From Escherichia coli (GTDB taxonomy: Bacteria > Pseudomonadota > Gammaproteobacteria > Enterobacterales > Enterobacteriaceae), in assembly GCF_048403405.1 (NCBI RefSeq), contig NZ_CP183129.1: 64,000 bases of DNA; one strand, 5' to 3'. This document shows positions 7,237-19,893 of this stretch, piece after piece. A program made the translations under genes and the position numbers. The notes beneath the pieces are model-generated. The model saw only the letters and a program-made list of their open reading frames with translations. It was not told where the DNA came from and did not search any database. Every line of letters begins with the position of its first letter. Within the stretch, counting starts at the first letter, position 1.

Positions 7237-7851
7237 TTATCTGTTTGAGCCTAAAGGGATCTCAGGGTCTGGCTCATGAGTAATTCTGTTTCGTAAATCT
7301 CTGCGAATAATTTCAATGGACCAGAACCAGACTAAATGTCCAAAAATTTCAGAAACATTCTCATACCACGGGAGATCAAACAGAGGTGGCGTCAGTCCCA
7401 TGAGAGGGAATGAAATCATATGAACAAAAAGTTGGGCTAAAGCACCTGCCAGTAAGCCCTGCCAGAGTTTAATTTTTGGAAATACTTCAGCGACCACACA
7501 ATAACCGACAGCAAACACTATCGAAAAGATAATGTGCGTAACACCAACCCAGTTAAAGACATGCCCGGCAAAGGTATAAACAGCCGCATTGGGATCTGTC
7601 AGCCCCAACCAGTCTCGAAGAAAAATATACGGAGGATTGAGAAAATTACGGGAGCAATCAATTTGCCCAGCAGCCCTGATTAATGATTCCGGGCCACACG
7701 CTGCATTAAACATATCCACCGGGCTACGTGGCGGCAATGGAACTTCAGCCCCCCACTTCACAAATGCGGAAACAACGCCAGCAATCAGCCCAATGAATGC
7801 AGCAAGACCATAACGTCTGCGGTTCGGTGGAGTTTGTTCAAATATATTCAT
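7237..7851 (-). CDS. yagU: Inner membrane protein YagU (DUF1440)
   Basis: 204-aa [33 protein letters not shown], multi-TM. Confidence 0.9.
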
Positions 7852-8257
7852 ATCTACCCTGCTTGTACCATTATGTTATACACCTCTTCAGGAGTATTCA
7901 TAAAATAAGACAAATGTAAAGAACTGTATTGTTTTGTATAACAAGATAGTTTCCTAATCGCCAATGAATATAAGCACCATCATTTCTCCCTATTTTTATG
8001 TTAGAAGTGACAAAGATTTGTAGGGTGATGCAGAGCTGACAATCACAGGTTTCCTTATCGGTTTTTGCATCGTACAACTAAAGCAATAAACGAGCTCCCG
8101 TCATCGGCGAATATGAATTAATTAGCCGGGCTCATAGCTGCATTCGCGTTTTAAGAATAATCCTCCTGCTCTCACCGACTATGCTTAACGTTTAAAAAAG
8201 CATCAGCACTCTCGCAACGCTCTCTTATTTTCCCCTTTAGAATACCGGAGGCCTGGT

Positions 8258-8947
8258 ATGAGCAACCAAGGCGAATACCCCGAAGATAATCGGGTTGGGA
8301 AGCACGAGCCGCACGATTTTAGTTTGACCCGTCGCGATCTGATTAAAGTCAGCGCCGCAACGGCGGCGACCGCCGTGGTTTATCCTCATTCTACGCTTGC
8401 AGCAAGCGTTCCGGCAGCTACACCCGCGCCAGAGATAATGCCCCTGACACTTAAGGTGAACGGCAAAACCGAGCAGTTGGACGTTGATACCCGAACCACG
8501 CTACTGGACGCTTTGCGTGAAAATCTGCATCTGATCGGTACCAAGAAAGGTTGCGATCACGGGCAGTGCGGAGCCTGTACCGTGCTGGTCAATGGTCGCA
8601 GGCTTAATGCCTGCCTGACGCTTGCAGTCATGCATCAGGGGGCCGAGATCACCACCATTGAAGGCCTGGGTTCACCAGAGAATCTTCACCCCATGCAGGC
8701 GGCCTTTATCAAGCATGATGGCTTCCAGTGCGGCTACTGCACCTCCGGGCAAATTTGCTCATCAGTAGCGGTGCTAAAAGAGATTCAGGACGGCATTCCC
8801 AGTCACGTCACGGTCGATTTGGTTTCCCCTCCAGAAAGAACGGCCGATGAGATCCGTGAACGTATGAGCGGCAACATCTGTCGCTGTGGAGCATACGCTA
8901 ACATCCTTGCCGCCATTGAAGACGCTGCGGGGGAGATAAAATCATGA
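8258..8947 (+). CDS. paoA: Periplasmic aldehyde oxidoreductase, 2Fe-2S subunit PaoA (Tat signal)
   Basis: Twin-arginine motif LTRRDLIKV; two Cys clusters ([11 protein letters not shown] and CRCGAY) typical of 2Fe-2S ferredoxin subunits. Confidence 0.95.
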
Positions 8948-9900
8948 AGGCGTTTACCTATGAACGAGTGAACACCCCGGCCGAGGCGGCACTTAGCGCT
9001 CAGCGCGTACCCGGCGCAAAATTTATCGCTGGCGGGACCAATCTGCTGGACCTGATGAAGCTGGAAATTGAAACGCCAACCCACCTTATCGATGTGAACG
9101 GGCTCGGGCTCGATAAGATTGAAGTGACCGACGCGGGTGGGCTGCGCATCGGCGCACTGGTACGGAACACCGACCTGGCAGCTCACGAGCGCGTGCGTCG
9201 TGATTACGCGGTACTCTCCCGCGCCCTGCTCGCTGGCGCGTCTGGTCAGTTACGTAATCAGGCAACCACCGCAGGTAATCTGCTCCAGCGCACGCGCTGC
9301 CCCTATTTTTACGACACCAATCAGCCCTGCAATAAGCGCCTGCCCGGGAGCGGCTGCGCGGCACTTGAAGGCTTTAGCCGTCAGCACGCGGTGGTAGGCG
9401 TAAGCGAAGCCTGCATTGCCACCCATCCGAGCGATATGGCGGTCGCAATGCGGTTGCTGGATGCGGTGGTGGAAACCATCACGCCGGAGGGAAAGACTCG
9501 CAGTATCACACTGGCTGATTTTTATCACCCTCCAGGAAAAACGCCGCACATTGAAACCGCCCTGCTTCCCGGTGAGCTTATCGTTGCGGTGACGTTACCT
9601 CCGCCGCTCGGCGGAAAACATATTTACCGTAAGGTGCGCGATCGCGCCTCCTACGCCTTTGCCCTGGTATCGGTCGCAGCGATTATTCAGCCTAACGGCA
9701 GCGGGCGCGTCGCGCTGGGCGGAGTAGCACATAAGCCCTGGCGCATTGAGGCTGCGGATGCTCAGCTATCCCAGGGGGCGCAGGCCGTGTATGACGCGCT
9801 GTTCGCCAGCGCCCATCCCACCACTGAAAACACCTTTAAACTCCTGTTGGCGAAGCGAACGCTTGCCTCCGTACTGGCTGAAGCGAGGGCACAGGCATGA
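8944..9900 (+). CDS. paoB: Aldehyde oxidoreductase FAD-binding subunit PaoB
   Basis: 318-aa ORF overlapping paoA stop; CO-dehydrogenase flavoprotein-like. Confidence 0.93.
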
Positions 9901-12095
9901 AATTTGATAAACCCGCAGGGGAAAACCCGATTGATCAGCTGAAGGTTGTCGGTCGTCCCCATGACCGTATCGACGGACCGCTGAAAACTACCGGCACGGC
10001 ACGCTACGCCTACGAATGGCATGAAGAAGCCCCCAACGCCGCCTATGGTTATATCGTCGGTTCCGCCATTGCCAAAGGATGCCTCACCGCCCTCGATACG
10101 GACGCCGCGCAAAAAGCGCCGGGCGTACTGGCTGTCATTACCGCCAGTAACGCCGGGGCACTCGGCAAAGGCGACAAAAACACCGCCAGGCTGTTAGGCG
10201 GCCCCACTATTGAGCACTATCATCAGGCCATTGCGCTGGTAGTGGCCGAGACCTTCGAACAGGCACGAGCGGCGGCCTCGCTGGTGCAGGCGCACTATCG
10301 CCGTAATAAAGGAGCTTACTCCCTGGCGGACGAGAAACAGGCCGTCAGTCAGCCGCCGGAAGACACGCCCGATAAAAATGTTGGTGACTTTGACGGGGCT
10401 TTCACCTCCGCTGCGGTGAAGATTGATGCTACCTACACGACCCCGGACCAGAGCCATATGGCGATGGAACCGCATGCCTCGATGGCCGTCTGGGATGGAA
10501 ATAAGCTTACCCTCTGGACCTCAAATCAGATGATTGACTGGTGCCGCACCGATCTGGCAAAAACGCTGAAAGTGCCCGTGGAGAATGTGCGTATTATCTC
10601 CCCGTATATCGGTGGAGGGTTTGGCGGCAAGCTGTTCCTGAGAAGCGATGCGCTGCTGGCGGCCCTCGCCGCCCGTGCGGTGAAACGTCCGGTTAAAGTG
10701 ATGCTCCCCCGCCCCACTATTCCCAATAACACCACGCACCGCCCCGCCACCCTTCAGCACCTGCGTATCGGTGCCGACCAGAGCGGGAAAATCACTGCTA
10801 TCTCACATGAAAGCTGGTCCGGAAACCTGCCCGGCGGCACGCCGGAAACGGCGGTACAGCAAAGCGAATTTCTTTACGCAGGGGCGAATCGTCATACAGG
10901 CCTGCGGCTCGCCACGCTTGATTTGCCGGAAGGGAACGCCATGCGTGCGCCCGGCGAAGCCCCCGGTCTGATGGCGCTCGAAATCGCGATCGACGAACTG
11001 GCGGAAAAAGCGGGCATCGATCCCGTCGAGTTTCGCATCCTGAATGACACTCAGGTTGACCCCGCCGACCCGACGCGCCGCTTCTCTCGCCGTCAGCTTA
11101 TTGAGTGCTTGCGCACCGGAGCGGATAAATTTGGCTGGAAGCAGCGAAACGCCACCCCCGGACAGGTACGCGACGGGGAGTGGCTAGTCGGCCACGGTGT
11201 TGCGGCGGGCTTTCGCAATAATCTGCTGGAAAAATCGGGTGCGCGGGTTCACCTGGAGCAAAACGGCACCGTTACCGTGGAAACGGACATGACCGATATT
11301 GGCACTGGCAGCTACACCATTCTGGCCCAGACGGCAGCGGAAATGCTTGGCGTACCGCTGGAGCAGGTTGCGGTTCACCTCGGCGATTCCAGTTTCCCGG
11401 TTTCTGCGGGTTCTGGTGGACAATGGGGCGCGAATACCTCCACCTCCGGCGTTTACGCCGCCTGTGTGAAACTTCGCGAAATGATTGCCTCGGCAGTCGG
11501 GTTTGATCCTGAGCAGTCGCAGTTTGCCGACGGCAAGATTACCAACGATACCCGAAGCGCCACGCTACATGAGGCCACCGCAGGCGGCAGACTGACAGCG
11601 GAAGAGAGCATTGAATTCGGAACAATGAGCAAGGAGTACCAGCAATCGACCTTTGCCGGGCATTTTGTGGAGGTCGGCGTGCATAGCGCGACGGGAGAAG
11701 TTCGGGTCCGGCGTATGCTCGCCGTGTGCGCAGCGGGGCGCATTCTGAATCCGAAAACTGCACGCAGCCAGGTCATTGGCGCAATGACTATGGGCATGGG
11801 CGCGGCACTGATGGAGGAGCTGGCGGTAGATGACCGTTTGGGCTACTTCGTTAATCACGATATGGCGGGGTATGAGGTGCCGGTCCATGCGGATATCCCA
11901 AAACAGGAGGTGATTTTCCTGGATGATACCGACCCCATCTCCTCCCCGATGAAGGCCAAAGGTGTCGGTGAGCTGGGCCTGTGCGGCGTGAGCGCGGCTA
12001 TCGCCAACGCGGTGTATAACGCCACCGGTATTCGGGTACGGGATTATCCCATCACTCTGGATAAGCTGCTCGATAAACTGCCGGATGTGGTTTAA
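9897..12095 (+). CDS. paoC: Aldehyde oxidoreductase molybdopterin-binding subunit PaoC
   Basis: 732-aa ORF; xanthine dehydrogenase large-subunit-like. Confidence 0.95.
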
Positions 12096-12104
12096 GGAGG
12101 AACA

Positions 12105-13061
12105 ATGTCATACTCGCTTTTTGACAAAGACGAGCACTGGCATAAGCCAGAGCAGGCGTTTCTCACCGATGACCACCGGACCATTCTGCGCTTCGCCGTA
12201 GAGGCGCTAATGTCCGGTAAAGGAGCGGTGCTGGTGACGCTGGTGGAGATACGCGGCGGCGCGGCGCGCCCGCTCGGGGCGCAGATGGTGGTGCGCGAAG
12301 ATGGTCGTTACTGCGGTTTTGTCTCTGGCGGCTGCGTGGAGGCCGCTGCCGCTTTTGAAGCGCTGGAGATGATGGGCTCAGGCCGCGATCGCGAAATTCG
12401 CTATGGTGAAGGTTCGCCGTGGTTTGACATCGTTCTGCCCTGCGGCGGTGGGATCACGCTGACGCTCCATAAACTACGCTCGGCACAGCCTCTGCTCGCC
12501 GTGCTGAACCGCCTGGAACAGAGAAAACCGGCGGGTCTGCGCTACGATCCGCAAGCTCAATCGCTGGTGTGCCTGCCCACGCAAACCCGGACGGGCTGGA
12601 ATCTCAATGGCTTTGAGGTGGGGTTCAGACCATGCGTCAGTCTGATGATTTACGGACGTTCTCTTGAGGCGCAGGCAACCGCGAGTCTTGCAGCAGCCAC
12701 AGGCTATGACAGCCATATCTTCGATCTTTTTCCGGCCTCAGCCAGCGCTCAGATCGATACCGATACGGCGGTCATTTTGCTGTGCCATGATCTCAACCGG
12801 GAGCTGCCAGTGTTGCAGGCCGCGCGAGAGGCAAAACCCTTTTATCTCGGCGCATTGGGCAGCTATCGAACCCACACTTTACGTCTGCAAAAGCTCCACG
12901 AGCTGGGATGGTCCAGGGAGGAGACAGCGCAAATCCGGGCACCCGTCGGGATATTCCCCAAAGCCCGGGATGCGCATACTCTGGCACTCTCCGTGCTGGC
13001 AGAAGTCGCCTCTGTACGTCTCCATCAGGAGGAGGATTCATGCCTGCCCCCGTCGTCCTGA
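12105..13061 (+). CDS. paoD: XdhC-like molybdenum cofactor insertion chaperone PaoD
   Basis: 318-aa ORF immediately after paoC. Confidence 0.9.
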   Translation: MSYSLFDKDEHWHKPEQAFLTDDHRTILRFAVEALMSGKGAVLVTLVEIRGGAARPLGAQMVVREDGRYCGFVSGGCVEAAAAFEALEMMGSGRDREIRYGEGSPWFDIVLPCGGGITLTLHKLRSAQPLLAVLNRLEQRKPAGLRYDPQAQSLVCLPTQTRTGWNLNGFEVGFRPCVSLMIYGRSLEAQATASLAAATGYDSHIFDLFPASASAQIDTDTAVILLCHDLNRELPVLQAAREAKPFYLGALGSYRTHTLRLQKLHELGWSREETAQIRAPVGIFPKARDAHTLALSVLAEVASVRLHQEEDSCLPPSS

Positions 13062-13125
13062 TCCTTGCGGCCGGGCGTGGAGAGCGCTTTCTCGCCTCCG
13101 GGGGAAATACCCATAAATTAAGAGA
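13040..13125 (+). pseudogene. Possible 5' remnant of a MobA/MocA-like nucleotidyltransferase gene
   Basis: ATG overlapping paoD stop encodes MPAPVVLILAAGRGERFLASGGNTHKL, resembling the N-terminal NTP-transferase motif; similarity is lost after about 28 codons. Confidence 0.3.
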
Positions 13126-13240
13126 AAAATCTGCAGTAGCCGTTTTAGAAAATCACCTAAATCGTTTAAAAGAGCACCCAACCCATAGTGGGCGCTCATC
13201 GCCTTGTGTAACTTATTCAGCAACGCGCGCCCTCGCCGGA

Positions 13241-14434
13241 CTAAAGCGCACCGGCCTTCTGGCGTGCGGTAACAAAGGTCAGTACGCCAGCGCAAAGGAG
13301 CAGCACGCTACTCATAGCAAACGTGCTCTGCCAGCCAAGGCGGTCAAATACGATGCCTCCTGCTGTTGATCCAAGGGCGATGGAGAGCTGAATCACCGCG
13401 ACCATGAGCCCGCCTCCGGCTTCGGCGTTGTCAGGCAACGTACGCGCAATCCATGTCCACCATCCGGTTGGCGCGGCGGTGGCCAGCATGCCCCAGAGTC
13501 CTAACAGCAGCGAGACCGTCCAGACGTGATGCCCGGTCAGCATCAGACCGATAGCAATGACGGCCATCAGTCCGGGTATGGCCATCAGCGTGGGGTAGAA
13601 TTTTCTGTTGAGAAATGCCGAAACAACCAGCGTGCCAATAAAACCGGCCACGCCGATAATCAGCAAAATCAACGACAAGCCTAAGGAATTAACCCGTGTC
13701 ACCGACTCCAGAAACGGGCGCACATAGGTGAATAGTGCAAACTGCCCCATGAAAAACAGGCAGCAGGCTATCATGCCGACCACAACCATGCGGCGGCTAA
13801 ATAAGCGGAATACCGCGCCACATGAAGTGTGGCTTTTATTCGCATCCATGCTTGGCAGGCTGATGCACTGCCAGATAAAGGCGACAACCGCGATGGGCAC
13901 CAGGCACAAGAAAGCGCCTCGCCATCCGACCGTAGCCCCCAGATAGCTTCCCAGCGGTGCGGCCACGACCGTCGCCAGCGCATTACCGGCGTTGAAAATT
14001 GCCAGCGCACGCGTGACCTGATGCTGCGGCACCAGACGAATCGCCGTTGCCGCTGACATCGACCAGAATCCGCCAATAGCCACACCAATCATCGCACGAC
14101 CGACCATATACATCAGATAACTGGAAGCCAGCGCAATAATAAGCCCCGATACGGCCATCAGAACCGTCATCCCCAGCAGCAGGAACTTACGATTCATCTT
14201 TCCAGCTAGCGTTGAAAGCGTCAGGCTGGTCAGAACCGCCAGCGCGCCGGAGATAGCAATCCCCTGCCCTGCCAGCCCCTCCGTCACGCCTAAATCGCGG
14301 GTAATCGGCGTGAGCAGGCTGACGGGCATAAATTCAGAAGCAATCAGCACAAACACGCACAGGGTCATGGCAAAAATACCGCCCCAGTATGCGCGCTGAT
14401 GATGAGGTGATAGTGTTTGGCTTAGTGTCGACAT
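13241..14434 (-). CDS. Major facilitator superfamily transporter (12-TM)
   Basis: 397-aa hydrophobic ORF with MFS-like loop motifs. Confidence 0.85.
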   Translation of the reverse strand: MSTLSQTLSPHHQRAYWGGIFAMTLCVFVLIASEFMPVSLLTPITRDLGVTEGLAGQGIAISGALAVLTSLTLSTLAGKMNRKFLLLGMTVLMAVSGLIIALASSYLMYMVGRAMIGVAIGGFWSMSAATAIRLVPQHQVTRALAIFNAGNALATVVAAPLGSYLGATVGWRGAFLCLVPIAVVAFIWQCISLPSMDANKSHTSCGAVFRLFSRRMVVVGMIACCLFFMGQFALFTYVRPFLESVTRVNSLGLSLILLIIGVAGFIGTLVVSAFLNRKFYPTLMAIPGLMAVIAIGLMLTGHHVWTVSLLLGLWGMLATAAPTGWWTWIARTLPDNAEAGGGLMVAVIQLSIALGSTAGGIVFDRLGWQSTFAMSSVLLLCAGVLTFVTARQKAGAL

Positions 14435-14509
14435 AGTGAAATTTCACAAAGATCAGGATAAAAGCCACCAGCCTATGGCCGGTGGCTTTGCATCAATTCA
14501 GGAGAGGTT

Positions 14510-15646
14510 TTATTTCAGTTTGGTCTGGAAAAATTGTTCGAACTTCGCGAAAGGTATTTTTCCGGCCACGTTATCGTACAGGTCCACGTGATTTGCCCCT
14601 GGTACCACCACCAACTCTTTGTCTTTACTGCCAACCGCCTTGTAAGCATCTTCAGCAAAATAGCGTGAATGTGCTTTCTCACCGGTCACAATCAGCGTCG
14701 GAATGGTGATTTCACTGGCGTAGCTCAACAGCGGCATATTCATAAATGACAGCGGCATCGTTGCCGTCCACGCCCCGGTAGAGTTAACGGAACGTTCGTG
14801 GAAGCCGCGCGGCATGCGATAGTAGTCAAAGAACTCTTTCAGTACCGGATGAGGATTTGCCGGCAGCGTTTCTGGCAGAATGCGCTCGCCCGCACTGACC
14901 TTGCCGTTGCTGTCGACATTAATATCATGACCACCGTGAGCGAACGTTCCGCTCTGCGCATCCTTCCAGCGCTGTTCATTCAGATATTGCAGAACGGCAC
15001 GACGGTCGGCGGTAGAATAACGGTCTTTGCCATCCCCCACACCATGACCCATCGCCCGGCTCATGTCATACATCACGCTGGTAGCTACCGCTTTAACGCG
15101 GGTATCCATCGCCACGTCGTTCAGCGCCATGCCGCCCCAGCCACAAATACCGAGCAGCCCGATACGGTTGCGATCTACCTCTTTTTGCAGCCCTAAGAAA
15201 TCCACCGCCGCGCTGAAATCTTCAGTGTTGATATCCGGTGAGGCGACGTTTCGCGGATAGCCGCCGCTTTCCCCGGTGTAAGAAGGATCGAACGCCAGGG
15301 TAACAAACCCTCGTTCCGCCAGCGTCTGCGCATACAAGCCGCTGGATTGCTCTTTCACCGCGCCAAATGGCCCACTGACCGCAATCGCCGCCAGCTTGCG
15401 ATCGCCACGGTCTTTAGGCAGGTAAAGATCGCCCACTAAGGTGATGCCATATCGGTTCGGGAACGAGACTTTACGGTGATCGACTTTCTGGCTCTCGGCG
15501 AACGTTTTATCCCATTTATCTGTCATGGACACAGGGGCATTAGGATTGGTTGAATCAGCATAACTCATTGTCGTGACTCCACTTAATGATGCGAAAAGCA
15601 GCATGGTCGGCATCGCGGTTTTTAGCGTGCGGGTGAAGGCTTTCAT
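14510..15646 (-). CDS. Secreted alpha/beta-hydrolase-fold protein (putative Cys/Ser hydrolase)
   Basis: N-terminal signal peptide; nucleophile-elbow-like GICGWGG motif; ends VVVPGANHVDLYD. Confidence 0.7.
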   Translation of the reverse strand: MKAFTRTLKTAMPTMLLFASLSGVTTMSYADSTNPNAPVSMTDKWDKTFAESQKVDHRKVSFPNRYGITLVGDLYLPKDRGDRKLAAIAVSGPFGAVKEQSSGLYAQTLAERGFVTLAFDPSYTGESGGYPRNVASPDINTEDFSAAVDFLGLQKEVDRNRIGLLGICGWGGMALNDVAMDTRVKAVATSVMYDMSRAMGHGVGDGKDRYSTADRRAVLQYLNEQRWKDAQSGTFAHGGHDINVDSNGKVSAGERILPETLPANPHPVLKEFFDYYRMPRGFHERSVNSTGAWTATMPLSFMNMPLLSYASEITIPTLIVTGEKAHSRYFAEDAYKAVGSKDKELVVVPGANHVDLYDNVAGKIPFAKFEQFFQTKLK

Positions 15647-15832
15647 AAAAATCCCCATAAAAAACAACAGAGAGATACAGGTTTCCGACGGACAACGCTG
15701 CGGTGCTTTACTTTGATGGGGTCATTATAGTGAGCAGAATTAGTGCTGATTAGGGGGCGATTAATGCTAAGATTAATACCATATTGTTATAAATTAATGT
15801 GGAGATTGCCGGCATGAAGGGGGGATGTTTCA

Positions 15833-16717
15833 ATGGCGAAAAGGGAGAACTACAACGAGCTGTACCTGTTTATGCAGGTGGTGCGAGAAGGCAGCTTTAC
15901 CGCAGCGGCTCAGCGGCTGGGTCTTGCTCAGTCAGGAGTCAGCCGTTCTGTTCGCGAGCTTGAAGAAAGGCTGGGTGTCCAGCTGCTAGTGCGCACCACG
16001 CGTAAACTGTCGCTGACACAAGCAGGCGAGCAGCTCTACCAGAAGACGGCATCTGGATTTGAAATGTTAGATCTTGGGCTTGCCACACTGGCGCACTATC
16101 GAGAGACGCCCTCCGGCACGGTGCGTATCAATGCCAGCCAGCACGCGATTGATAAATGCCTGCTGCCAAAGCTGGCGGTATTTAAACAGCGATATCCTGA
16201 TATCCGGCTTGAACTGATAAATGAGAGCCGGTTCGTCGATATCATCGAGGAAAGATTCGATGCAGGTGTCCGCCTGGGGCCTGAAGTCGGCCAGGGTATG
16301 GTCGCGGTACGCATCACGCCCGATATGGAGATGGCAATTGTGGGGACTCCGGAACATTTTCGTCGCTATGGTTTTCCGCAAACCCCGGCGGATTTAAAGG
16401 CGCATCCCTGTATCGCCTATCAGTTTGCCGACGGCAGCGTATACCAGTGGGAACTCAATCAGGATGATAAAAAAATCACTCATCGCCCTGAAGGGCAATG
16501 GGCCTTATCCGACAGCTATATGGAAGCAGAAGCCGCCCGGCTGGGCCTCGGATTGGCCTATGTTCCTGTTGAACTGGTCGCGGATGATTTAGAACACGGT
16601 AAGCTTATCAGGGTGTTGCAGCGTTACAGCCTGCGAATGGAGGGATTGTTTCTCTATTACCCTCATCGCAACGTCTCCCCCGCCCTGCGGATGGTCATTG
16701 ATACATTGAAAATCTGA
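15833..16717 (+). CDS. LysR-family transcriptional regulator
   Basis: 294 aa; N-terminal HTH FTAAAQRLGLAQSGVSRSVRELEERLGVQLLVRTTRKLSLTQAG; divergent from the hydrolase-MFS pair. Confidence 0.88.
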   Translation: MAKRENYNELYLFMQVVREGSFTAAAQRLGLAQSGVSRSVRELEERLGVQLLVRTTRKLSLTQAGEQLYQKTASGFEMLDLGLATLAHYRETPSGTVRINASQHAIDKCLLPKLAVFKQRYPDIRLELINESRFVDIIEERFDAGVRLGPEVGQGMVAVRITPDMEMAIVGTPEHFRRYGFPQTPADLKAHPCIAYQFADGSVYQWELNQDDKKITHRPEGQWALSDSYMEAEAARLGLGLAYVPVELVADDLEHGKLIRVLQRYSLRMEGLFLYYPHRNVSPALRMVIDTLKI

Positions 16718-16789
16718 ACGTTAACAACGACCGACTCTTTACTGTGCAATATTGTGTCAGGTAGTCCCTCTGCGTTCAATTCCAGGGTT

Positions 16790-17210
16790 TGTACTGACCC
16801 CAAAAAGTTGGACAGTTAAACACGAGGCATATAGGTCTGATTCCGATATTCAATTGGAGTCAGACCTTTTAATTTCAGGCTAATTCTTCTGCTGTTGTAG
16901 TATTCAATATATTCCGTAACAGCATCCTTCAGTTCGCTTATATTACTGAACTCATCAAGATAAAAACACTCCGACTTTAAGGTTCCAAAGAAACACTCCA
17001 CCACAGCATTATCCAGACAATTGCCTTTTCTGGACATGCTTTGTTTAATACCATGTTCTTTAAGGATATTTTGATATCTTCTCATACGATACTGCCATCC
17101 CTGGTCAGAGTGCAGAACAGGATGCTCGTGAGGATTAAGCTTTTTGAATGCCTGATCGAGCATATTCTCAACCATGTTCATCACTGGTCTTTCCGAAAGG
17201 CTGTAAGAAA
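16790..17210 (-). mobile_element. IS3-family (IS150-group-like) element, right part: orfB C-terminal fragment plus terminal repeat
   Basis: Minus-strand translation ...[47 protein letters not shown]...; end sequence tgtactgaccccaaaaagttggac; abuts IS26 at 17211. Confidence 0.8.
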
Positions 17211-18030
17211 GGCACTGTTGCAAATAGTCGGTGGTGATAAACTTATCATCCCCTTTTGCTGATGGAGCTGCACATGAACCCATTCAAAGGCCGGCATTTT
17301 CAGCGTGACATCATTCTGTGGGCCGTACGCTGGTACTGCAAATACGGCATCAGTTACCGTGAGCTGCAGGAGATGCTGGCTGAACGCGGAGTGAATGTCG
17401 ATCACTCCACGATTTACCGCTGGGTTCAGCGTTATGCGCCTGAAATGGAAAAACGGCTGCGCTGGTACTGGCGTAACCCTTCCGATCTTTGCCCGTGGCA
17501 CATGGATGAAACCTACGTGAAGGTCAATGGCCGCTGGGCGTATCTGTACCGGGCCGTCGACAGCCGGGGCCGCACTGTCGATTTTTATCTCTCCTCCCGT
17601 CGTAACAGCAAAGCTGCATACCGGTTTCTGGGTAAAATCCTCAACAACGTGAAGAAGTGGCAGATCCCACGATTCATCAACACGGATAAAGCGCCCGCCT
17701 ATGGTCGCGCGCTTGCTCTGCTCAAACGCGAAGGCCGGTGCCCGTCTGACGTTGAACACCGACAGATTAAGTACCGGAACAACGTGATTGAATGCGATCA
17801 TGGCAAACTGAAACGGATAATCAACGCCACGCTGGGATTTAAATCCATGAAGACGGCTTACGCCACCATCAAAGGTATTGAGGTGATGCGTGCACTACGC
17901 AAAGGCCAGGCCTCAGCATTTTATTATGGTGATCCCCTGGGCGAAATGCGCCTGGTAAGCAGAGTTTTTGAAATGTAAGGCCTTTGAATAAGACAAAAGG
18001 CTGCCTCATCGCTAACTTTGCAACAGTGCC
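17211..18030 (+). mobile_element. IS26 copy 1 (820 bp, complete)
   Basis: Terminal inverted repeats ggcactgttgcaaa at 17211 and its reverse complement ending at 18030; internal Tnp26 ORF. Confidence 0.95.
17271..17978 (+). CDS. tnpA: IS26 transposase Tnp26 (IS6 family)
   Basis: [57 protein letters not shown]... Confidence 0.95.
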   Translation, partial: HMNPFKGRHFQRDIILWAVRWYCKYGISYRELQEMLAERGVNVDHSTIYRWVQRYAPEMEKRLRWYWRNPSDLCPWHMDETYVKVNGRWAYLYRAVDSRGRTVDFYLSSRRNSKAAYRFLGKILNNVKKWQIPRFINTDKAPAYGRALALLKREGRCPSDVEHRQIKYRNNVIECDHGKLKRIINATLGFKSMKTAYATIKGIEVMRALRKGQASAFYYGDPLGEMRLVSRVFEM

Positions 18031-18743
18031 CTTGCTGGTAGTGGTTCTGTAGCCAGGTGGCTGAAGGTCTATGAAGAGCGCGGAGAAGCTGGTTTACGCG
18101 CGCTCAAGATTGGCACCAAAAGAAACATTGCAATATCAGTTGATCCAGAAAAAGCGGCATCAGCATTGGAGCTGTCAAAAGACCGACGCATTGAGGATCT
18201 TGAAAGGCAAGTTCGATTTCTTGAAACGCGGCTTATGTATCTAAAAAAGCTGAAAGCCTTAGCTCATCCCACGAAAAAGTAAAAGTACTCAACGAGCTAA
18301 GGCAGTTTTATCCTCTTGATGAGCTTCTCAGGGCTGCGGAGATACCGCGCAGTACGTTTTATTACCATCTAAAGGCTCTCAGCAAGCCTGACAAGTATGC
18401 GGACGTTAAAAAGCGTATTGGTGAGATTTATCACGAGAATAGAGGCCGATACGGATACCGTAGGGTAACGCTGTCTCTTCATCGAGAAGGGAAACAGATT
18501 AACCATAAAGCTGTTCAGCGCCTGATGGGAACCCTCTCACTTAAAGCAGCGATTAAGGTCAAGCGATACCGCTCTTACAGAGGAGAGGTAGGGCAAACCG
18601 CCCCTAATGTTCTCCAAAGAGATTTCAAGGCTACGCGGCCAAACGAGAAGTGGGTTACCGATGTTACTGAATTTGCAGTCAATGGGCGCAAGCTGTATTT
18701 GTCTCCAGTAATAGATCTCTTCAACAACGAAGTTATTTCTTAC
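18031..18743 (+). mobile_element. IS3-family element, internal part: orfA 3' region, A6G slippery site, orfB N-terminal fragment
   Basis: A-AAA-AAG frameshift heptamer at 18243-18249; orfB N-terminus ...[36 protein letters not shown], which continues in frame with the minus-strand fragment at 16816-17210. Confidence 0.8.
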
Positions 18744-19563
18744 GGCACTGTTGCAAAGTTAGCGATGAGGCAGCCTTTTGTCTTATTCAAAGGCCTTACA
18801 TTTCAAAAACTCTGCTTACCAGGCGCATTTCGCCCAGGGGATCACCATAATAAAATGCTGAGGCCTGGCCTTTGCGTAGTGCACGCATCACCTCAATACC
18901 TTTGATGGTGGCGTAAGCCGTCTTCATGGATTTAAATCCCAGCGTGGCGTTGATTATCCGTTTCAGTTTGCCATGATCGCATTCAATCACGTTGTTCCGG
19001 TACTTAATCTGTCGGTGTTCAACGTCAGACGGGCACCGGCCTTCGCGTTTGAGCAGAGCAAGCGCGCGACCATAGGCGGGCGCTTTATCCGTGTTGATGA
19101 ATCGTGGGATCTGCCACTTCTTCACGTTGTTGAGGATTTTACCCAGAAACCGGTATGCAGCTTTGCTGTTACGACGGGAGGAGAGATAAAAATCGACAGT
19201 GCGGCCCCGGCTGTCGACGGCCCGGTACAGATACGCCCAGCGGCCATTGACCTTCACGTAGGTTTCATCCATGTGCCACGGGCAAAGATCGGAAGGGTTA
19301 CGCCAGTACCAGCGCAGCCGTTTTTCCATTTCAGGCGCATAACGCTGAACCCAGCGGTAAATCGTGGAGTGATCGACATTCACTCCGCGTTCAGCCAGCA
19401 TCTCCTGCAGCTCACGGTAACTGATGCCGTATTTGCAGTACCAGCGTACGGCCCACAGAATGATGTCACGCTGAAAATGCCGGCCTTTGAATGGGTTCAT
19501 GTGCAGCTCCATCAGCAAAAGGGGATGATAAGTTTATCACCACCGACTATTTGCAACAGTGCC
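18744..19563 (-). mobile_element. IS26 copy 2 (820 bp, complete, inverted relative to copy 1)
   Basis: Identical Tnp26 ORF on minus strand; inverted repeats at 18744 and 19563. Confidence 0.95.
18796..19503 (-). CDS. tnpA: IS26 transposase Tnp26
   Basis: Protein identical to the copy at 17271-17978. Confidence 0.95.
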
Positions 19564-19803
19564 GATGATTTCAGATTTCATGACTTGAGACACACCTGGG
19601 CAAGTTGGCTGGTTCAAGCCGGTGTCCCGTTGTCAGTGTTACAGGAAATGGGAGGCTGGGAGTCTATCGAAATGGTTCGTCGATATGCTCACCTCGCACC
19701 TAATCACCTTACCGAACACGCACGGCAAATAGACTCGATCCTGAACCCATCGGTCCCAAATTTGTCCCAGTCAAAAAATAAGGAAGGTACTAATGATGTG
19801 TAA
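19564..19803 (+). pseudogene. P4-like tyrosine integrase, C-terminal about 80 codons (5' part replaced by IS26)
   Basis: ...[47 protein letters not shown]... carries the catalytic H-x-x-R and Y region; stop lies 14 bp from the tRNA-Thr 3' end. Confidence 0.8.
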
Positions 19804-19817
19804 CTTATTGATTTAAA

Positions 19818-19893
19818 TGGTGCCGATAATAGGAGTCGAACCTACGACCTTCGCATTACGAATGCGCTGCTCTACCAACTGAGCTATATCGGC
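19818..19893 (-). tRNA. thrW: tRNA-Thr (anticodon CGU)
   Basis: Reverse complement reads GCCGATATAGCTCAGTTGGTAGAGCAGCGCATTCGTAATGCGAAGGTCGTAGGTTCGACTCCTATTATCGGCACCA. Confidence 0.95.

Follow-up and report, generated by a model that had tools for sequence, protein, structure and literature searches.

What do a LysR-type regulator, an alpha/beta hydrolase and a transporter of the major facilitator superfamily (MFS) do when they are encoded side by side on an Escherichia coli chromosome, and do they serve a common purpose? The three genes in question lie in a 64,000-nucleotide stretch of contig NZ_CP183129.1 (the window), in which the MFS open reading frame (ORF) is the next after paoABCD, which end at 13061. 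A sequence-only reading had described them as an anonymous, self-contained unit of hydrolysis and transport. Here we show that they correspond to z0346-z0348, the right half of O island 9 (OI-9) of enterohaemorrhagic E. coli (EHEC) O157:H7, that the locus has already been published, and that its LysR gene is the named and studied virulence regulator OvrB. We lean, by a slight balance of probability, towards the view that the three genes form an OvrB-controlled module for periplasmic hydrolysis and efflux of a small molecule. OvrB is a published activator of EHEC attachment genes, and the adjoining hydrolase and transporter are an obvious place to seek the signal. To the existing account we add the family assignment of the hydrolase, its Cys-His-Glu triad, its predicted export signal, RefSeq start codons that are likely mis-set, the paralogy with PgrR/YcjY, and a candidate operator. 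The genes are:

13241-14434, minus strand: MFS transporter gene, 397-amino-acid (aa) ORF, 98% identical to Sakai ECs_0311 (z0348)
14510-15646, minus strand: alpha/beta hydrolase gene, 378 aa, 99% identical to Sakai ECs_0310 (z0347)
15833-16717, plus strand: LysR regulator gene ovrB, 294-aa ORF, 98% identical to Sakai ECs_0309 (z0346)

Because strong domain matches fall at these coordinates, the three ORFs are real genes and no chance ORF pattern, and the positions and divergent layout first proposed for them stand. The block is 97.6% identical in DNA to O island 9 of Sakai over 3,848 bp, and the order, orientation and paoD neighbour of ovrB-z0347-z0348 are the same in the window and in Sakai; amino-acid identities are 98-99%. 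The gene content of OI-9 (z0342-z0348) and the function of OvrB have been described (PMC6768210, Liu et al. 2019; PMC8565820), the rest of the island comprising a second LysR regulator, a short-chain dehydrogenase/reductase (SDR) and two hypothetical genes (z0342-z0345). The earlier interpretation was thus reasonable but incomplete, because the locus had already been described as OI-9 and its regulator named and studied. The basic picture, a known accessory island with ordinary gene types, is unchanged. So is the statement that the substrate is not inferable from sequence. A search of the profile libraries gave no named function, the NCBIfam scores all falling far under their cutoffs, and source names of the matching proteins are generic. 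No characterised operon of known substrate proved to be strongly homologous, the locus being known and having no substrate assigned. A literature search on PA2218, 2HDW, 5XB6, YcjY and ECs0309-0311 found no functional work, and the EDL933 Z-numbers alone led to the OvrB paper. The locus is missing from E. coli K-12 because of a deletion, and this may account for the scant attention that it has received.

Pfam profiles place the hydrolase among the alpha/beta hydrolases, as had been proposed (PETase-like, E 5e-8; Hydrolase_4, E 4e-7). Sequence and structural similarity to Pseudomonas aeruginosa PA2218 (PDB 2HDW, E 2e-125) and E. coli YcjY (5XB6, E 2e-43; 34% identity to K-12 YcjY), together with the family motifs VKEQ, GxCxxG and HxDLYD, assign it further to the PA2218/YcjY family (COG1073-type; 'FrsA/DUF1100' in IMG), for which these two crystal structures are available, and not to the generic serine esterases. 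The structural genomics target PA2218 has not been assigned a function. Next to it lies PA2219, listed as 'membrane protein OpdE', which we take to be the homologous MFS transporter, and PA2220 is presumably a LysR regulator. The GICGWGG motif, earlier called nucleophile-elbow-like, sits where an elbow is expected, and the residues around the predicted site are encoded as follows:

15131-15151, minus strand: GICGWGG nucleophile elbow, residues 166-172 of 378, directly after strand beta5 (157-167) in the predicted fold
15143-15145, minus strand: codon of Cys168, Cys in 75/75 family members and the sole Cys of the protein
14678-14680, minus strand: codon of Glu323, candidate catalytic acid, after beta7 (317-322); Glu in 70, Asp in 3 and Ser in 2 of 75
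14588-14590, minus strand: codon of His353, candidate catalytic base in the HxDLYD motif, after beta8 (343-348); His in 75/75

Residue conservation was taken from a 75-sequence alignment, in which position 323 is acidic in 73 sequences across phyla and VKEQ97-100, R132, R183, Y276, R280, K343 and HxDLYD are essentially invariant. The structural model has the canonical alpha/beta-hydrolase fold, with elbow, acid and His following beta5, beta7 and beta8, respectively, and Cys168-His353-Glu323 is a candidate catalytic triad at the canonical positions. By sequence, the nucleophile is the Cys of a GxCxG elbow rather than a Ser, and PA2218 and YcjY also carry Cys there. In dienelactone hydrolase (carboxymethylenebutenolidase), which shares the alpha/beta fold, the nucleophile is likewise the Cys of a GxCxG elbow, and the conserved Glu after beta3 of the hydrolase, E99, may, we presume, parallel the activating Glu of that enzyme. 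Dienelactone hydrolases score 22-25. The Cys nucleophile agrees, but assignment as a dienelactone hydrolase (PF01738) was rejected: no DLH profile matches at E <= 0.001, and a precomputed PF01738 match is present for some homologues only.

A scan of one genome per species returned 588 stretches with a relative, of which the best 80 loci were kept. In these best 80 of 588 loci, the hydrolase is found at 51-61% identity in Proteobacteria, Bacteroidota, Firmicutes, Campylobacterota, Elusimicrobia, Verrucomicrobia and Melainabacteria; a family so unusually conserved, from E. coli to Bacteroides and Campylobacter, and usually exported, is a tractable 'conserved unknown'. This breadth bears on the proposal that the hydrolase is an exported N-acyl-homoserine lactonase active in quorum quenching. 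A weak NCBIfam match to UilS (E 1e-17, N-terminal half) speaks for such an activity, as does the fact that Cys-type alpha/beta hydrolases such as dienelactone hydrolase typically act on lactones. The family is, however, equally conserved in Bacteroidota, Firmicutes and Campylobacterota, of which N-acyl-homoserine lactone signalling is, to our knowledge, not characteristic. The UilS N-acyl-homoserine lactonase model itself (NF047920) was rejected, its partial match of 64.4 bits lying far under the 400-bit cutoff and covering the core fold only, and we consider a quorum-quenching role highly improbable.

The longest hydrolase ORF has 385 aa (14510-15667, with a TTG start at 15667). The ATG at 15646 (378 aa) is the likely start, because it is preceded, at a distance of 5 nt, by a GGGGA Shine-Dalgarno sequence and because orthologues across Enterobacterales have 378 aa, with N-termini that align as protein. 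The intergenic region 15647-15832 that had been singled out earlier agrees with this start. Read from this ATG, the protein would begin with a signal peptide, in keeping with the earlier proposal:

15557-15646, minus strand: predicted Sec signal peptide, residues 1-30, MKAFTRTLKTAMPTMLLFASLSGVTTMSYA/DS, cleavage after SYA; basic n-region and hydrophobic core

Signal-like N-termini (Sec, lipobox or twin-arginine, Tat) occur in about 66 of 77 family members on a permissive N-terminal read; a stricter heuristic finds a signal in 50/77 hydrolases, as against 0/26 LysR and 0/15 acetyltransferase controls. Relatives in other lineages have lipobox or Tat signals at the place of the Sec signal, and cytoplasmic YcjY-like paralogues lack the N-terminal extension. 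The hydrolase N-terminus is low in model confidence (low predicted local distance difference test, pLDDT, at residues 1-4, 6-13 and 15-36). Taken together, a Sec export signal is plausible, and we infer a periplasmic location.

OvrB carries the domains of a LysR-type regulator, an N-terminal HTH_1 (PF00126, E 1.4e-23) and a C-terminal substrate-binding domain (LysR_substrate, PF03466, E 4.7e-35). It is 41% identical to K-12 PgrR over its full length (216 bits), 33% to YafC (155 bits) and 28% to YagP; YafC is its best-scoring named NCBIfam model. In K-12, pgrR (ycjZ) and ycjY are also divergently transcribed, and since OvrB and the hydrolase are 41% and 34% identical to PgrR and YcjY, respectively, regulator and hydrolase constitute a pair that was duplicated and inherited together. 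Orthology of OvrB with PgrR (YcjZ) was rejected in favour of paralogy, as identity is 41% only and the locus and partner operon differ. The K-12 operon, ycjY-ymjD-ymjC-mpaA, ends in a gene for a murein tripeptide amidase (mpaA), whereas its counterpart in the window ends in a transporter gene; YcjY lacks a signal peptide and carries Ser in place of Glu323. PgrR is a described repressor of peptidoglycan recycling genes, which binds its own promoter region and autoregulates. In Sakai, ECs_0333/ECs_0332 make up a third pair of this kind, accompanied by a gene for a flavin oxidoreductase. About 20 of the 80 loci have a LysR gene of the PgrR type beside that of the hydrolase, and the LysR-hydrolase pair recurs in Enterobacterales, Aeromonas, Pasteurellaceae, and Alpha- and Betaproteobacteria.

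It is this kinship that raises cell-wall peptide turnover as an explanation, in which OvrB would sense a muropeptide and the periplasmic hydrolase would cut a peptide that stems from murein. OvrB is closer to PgrR than to YafC, ycjY is co-transcribed with mpaA and lies beside ycjG and mppA, and other periplasmic cell-wall enzymes also use a catalytic Cys. The exported subfamily, however, is without peptidoglycan genes in all 80 loci examined, the NepI-like transporter matches none of the permease families for peptides or muropeptides, and YcjY itself has no assigned activity. We therefore hold a role in cell-wall turnover to be rather improbable.

If OvrB acts on its neighbours, it is most likely to do so from the region between the divergent genes. 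Eight regions from Enterobacterales and Aeromonas were aligned, and two conserved blocks stand out between variable flanks. The first holds an imperfect dyad; the second is an island of the form CTAATCAGCA-N7-TGCT-N2-CTATAATG with a TATAAT. The features of the region are:

15647-15832: intergenic control region of the divergent hydrolase and ovrB genes, 186 bp
15772-15794, minus strand: imperfect dyad ATTTATAACA-ATA-TGGTATTAAT, candidate LysR recognition site with T-N11-A, kept in 8/8 regions
15731-15749, minus strand: second dyad TCAGCA-N7-TGCTCA, co-varying as a palindrome in the alignment
15724-15729, minus strand: TATAAT, candidate -10 of the hydrolase promoter, kept in 7/8 aligned sequences

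The first dyad is a unique match in the window at <=2 mismatches (0.17 expected). Its centre lies about 66 bp upstream of the hydrolase start site inferred from the conserved -10, so that, with the start site placed in this way, the T-N11-A would stand near -65, the classical position of a LysR recognition site. Seen from ovrB, the dyad stands 39-61 bp ahead of the ATG and overlaps the likely ovrB promoter. A weak -35 (TAATCA) precedes the TATAAT. A sigma-70 consensus scan of 13000-17000 returned nothing in the intergenic region, and the promoter proposal rests accordingly on conservation across species. The dyad at 15772-15794 offers a concrete candidate for an OvrB operator.

The third protein belongs, by its MFS_1 match (PF07690, E 1.1e-38) and about 12 hydrophobic segments in a hydropathy plot, to the major facilitator superfamily. 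Its closest relatives are DHA1 transporters: with K-12 NepI it shares 39% identity across its full length (residues 14-393), and its best solved relative is the sugar efflux protein SotB (6KKK). Assignment as the NepI purine ribonucleoside exporter (NF007578) was rejected, the score of 292.7 bits lying under the equivalog cutoff of 584; at half that cutoff, the substrate of NepI cannot be transferred. The transporter misses every other NCBIfam equivalog cutoff as well. The gap between the hydrolase and MFS coding sequences holds the following feature:

14457-14494, minus strand: terminator- or attenuator-like hairpin; 13-bp stem rich in G+C, with AAA and UUUU on its two sides

The RNA of 14435-14509 (minus strand) folds at -28.6 kcal/mol (z = -5.6, 0/200 shuffles as good), and a consensus scan lists the same hairpin. 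A homologous MFS gene stands beside the hydrolase in about 17 of the 80 loci, all of them proteobacterial and with varying order; in Pseudomonas sp. M47T1, for example, the hydrolase gene is followed by a homologous MFS gene.

The character of the transporter also bears on nutrient scavenging, in which the periplasmic hydrolase would split an ester of dietary or plant origin (e.g. a hydroxycinnamate ester) to yield a usable acid or alcohol, the MFS protein would import the product, and the product would induce OvrB. The transporter, however, is closest to exporters (NepI, SotB and Cmx/CmrA), no enzymes that would catabolise a product are encoded nearby, feruloyl esterases use Ser and reach 18-23% identity only, and most loci of the family are without an MFS gene. 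Scavenging is, in our estimation, unlikely.

Outside the Proteobacteria, clustering of neighbouring ORFs puts the hydrolase in clusters headed by LysR or AraC regulators. Recurring neighbours among the 80 loci are hexapeptide acetyltransferases (15 loci), Cyclophil_like2 (15), aldo/keto reductases (10), cupins (9) and Flavodoxin_4 (6), and further SDR, CMD-cupin and FMN reductase proteins; no peptidoglycan or nutrient-catabolic genes occur in this gene set. As a whole it resembles xenobiotic or redox-stress clusters. The neighbours of the E. coli hydrolase are paoABCD and, in the full OI-9, also an SDR.

We consider that these observations are best, if by a narrow measure, brought together as follows. 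OvrB would most likely bind the conserved dyad in the 186-bp intergenic region, repress its own promoter and, upon meeting a small-molecule co-inducer, turn on the divergent hydrolase promoter. The hydrolase would reach the periplasm via its Sec signal peptide, where the Cys168-His353-Glu323 triad would cleave an ester, thioester, lactone or amide bond of a small compound, which is probably anionic because invariant Arg and Lys surround the site. The NepI/SotB-like transporter, probably made at a lower level via read-through of the hairpin, would pump the same or a related compound out of the cytoplasm, and the two proteins together would constitute an inducible detoxification or processing module of the envelope. 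In lineages with the locus of enterocyte effacement (LEE), OvrB has secondarily been recruited as an activator of LEE1/ler, the activation being published. Control of z0347/z0348 by OvrB and export as the direction of transport are both suggested by sequence comparison. AmpR-AmpC follows the same logic, in that a ligand-responsive LysR regulator is divergent from a periplasmic hydrolase that serves to inactivate a small molecule, though as an analogy only: AmpC has an unrelated fold and a known inducer and substrate.

Several points weigh against this scheme. The detoxification role is argued by association with neighbouring genes. A strong hairpin parts the MFS gene from the hydrolase gene, and no clear Shine-Dalgarno sequence lies ahead of the MFS ATG (a weak ribosome-binding site); the two genes are hence probably co-transcribed in part only. 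Several Enterobacterales carry the LysR-hydrolase pair without an MFS gene. The proposal of a self-contained unit accordingly stands for the LysR-hydrolase pairing, which is conserved and paralogous to pgrR-ycjY, and less so for the MFS gene, which lies behind the hairpin and is absent from many homologous loci. Furthermore, the RefSeq annotation takes Met27, an internal Met with its own GGAG 8 nt upstream, as the first residue of the hydrolase (352 aa, without a signal peptide); if that start were used, the enzyme would stay cytoplasmic. RefSeq likewise starts the MFS protein at Met23 (375 aa), and the 397-aa form is favoured because the NepI alignment begins at residue 14. Homologue lengths and N-terminal alignment, together with this NepI alignment, suggest that both RefSeq starts are too far downstream. 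Even in the periplasm, a lone catalytic thiol would need protection from the oxidising environment.

The remaining points concern OvrB itself. It binds the LEE1 promoter in electrophoretic mobility shift assays and in chromatin immunoprecipitation with quantitative PCR, activates ler, and promotes adherence and mouse colonisation (PMC6768210); activation of LEE1/ler has been published for O157:H7, O55:H7 and O145:H28. LEE1 is the only OvrB target demonstrated, and single deletions of z0347 or z0348 have no adherence or LEE phenotype (PMC6768210). A search with the local dyad found no match upstream of ler in Sakai LEE1 at <=3 mismatches and a chance number of matches across the 50-kb LEE locus, so that the LEE1 site must be more degenerate, or different. 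These results bear on the explanation that the genes form no functional unit, with OvrB a mainly trans-acting global or virulence regulator and the hydrolase and transporter independent, adjacent passengers. That LEE1 is the sole proven target, that neither deletion mimics loss of ovrB, that a hairpin lies between the two genes and that linkage of the MFS gene is variable are all in its favour. Yet most bacteria with the LysR-hydrolase pair lack the LEE and the pair recurs across Proteobacteria, the paralogous pgrR-ycjY shares the divergent layout, and the intergenic dyad and -10 are kept while their flanks diverge; we rate a mere passenger status as doubtful, on a par with scavenging. Each of the four alternatives finds some support, yet agrees less well than an OvrB-controlled hydrolysis and efflux module with the family of the transporter, with the neighbourhoods or with the profile scores. 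A literature search found no work on the ligand or regulon of OvrB, and later reviews describe the remaining OI-9 genes and further roles of OvrB as uninvestigated.

Intact three-gene blocks beside paoD were found by megablast in 912 of 5,426 complete E. coli genomes (about 17%), and the hydrolase gene in 939 of them. In public data, the exact protein sequences of the three genes sit in clusters of about 1,850-2,000 members. These clusters also include Citrobacter, Serratia and Enterobacter members, and in Kluyvera genomosp. 1 (locus L004, 4933-8400) the proteins of the block are 98%, 97% and 91% identical to those of E. coli, which for OvrB and the hydrolase is, in our judgement only, above what vertical descent would lead one to expect. 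The Kluyvera identities and the mixed-genus clusters of exact sequences point to a recent horizontal spread of the block.

Homology of the window to OI-9 stops at 16787. A tblastn search with z0342, z0343 and ECs_0307, the one annotated hypothetical gene between z0342/z0343 and ovrB in Sakai (the island's other hypothetical gene being outside the query set), found no orthologue anywhere in the window. A complete OI-9 including z0342-z0345 is thus not present, and the window holds the right half only. The place of the left half is taken by a rearrangement mediated by insertion sequences (IS), which extends from 16790 to 19893:

16790-17210: IS3/IS150-family fragment, cut by IS26
17211-18030: IS26 copy 1
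between the two IS26 copies: IS3-type remnant, 713 bp
18744-19563: IS26 copy 2, identical and inverted
about 19564-19803: truncated C-terminus of a phage-type integrase
19818-19893: tRNA-Thr gene thrW

On the other side of the block, paoC and paoD (9897-13061) adjoin the MFS gene and are convergent with it. Their products are the molybdenum subunit and the cofactor chaperone, respectively, of the aldehyde oxidoreductase PaoABC, which is periplasmic.

In locus L085, the short RefSeq annotations stand at 7674-8732 (hydrolase, 352 aa) and 8874-10001 (MFS, 375 aa). Across phyla, the commonest immediate neighbour of the exported hydrolase is a small Cyclophil_like2 protein (PF18050) with a signal or lipoprotein N-terminus. 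Cupin, Flavodoxin_4 and CMD proteins that bear signals are frequent companions, and the Cyclophil_like2, flavodoxin, cupin and CMD neighbours in general mostly have signal-like N-termini. Together with the hydrolase, Cyclophil_like2, cupin, Flavodoxin_4 and CMD proteins may form an extracytoplasmic pathway. The loci behind this observation are:

L016, L017, L026, L034, L039, L040, L042, L045, L046, L055, L059, L060 and L072: loci with Cyclophil_like2, cupin, Flavodoxin_4 or CMD neighbours

Finally, the record NZ_CP146678.1 (locus L084), 'plasmid unnamed3' of E. coli MS 69-1, circular and 64,057 bp long, carries the chromosomal genes ykgR-ecp-pao-OI-9 beside phage tail genes. The OI-9/paoD segment (window 13000-16789) also matches the chromosome of E. 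coli MS 69-1 at 100% identity, and the record may stem from the excision or amplification of a segment, or be an artefact of assembly.

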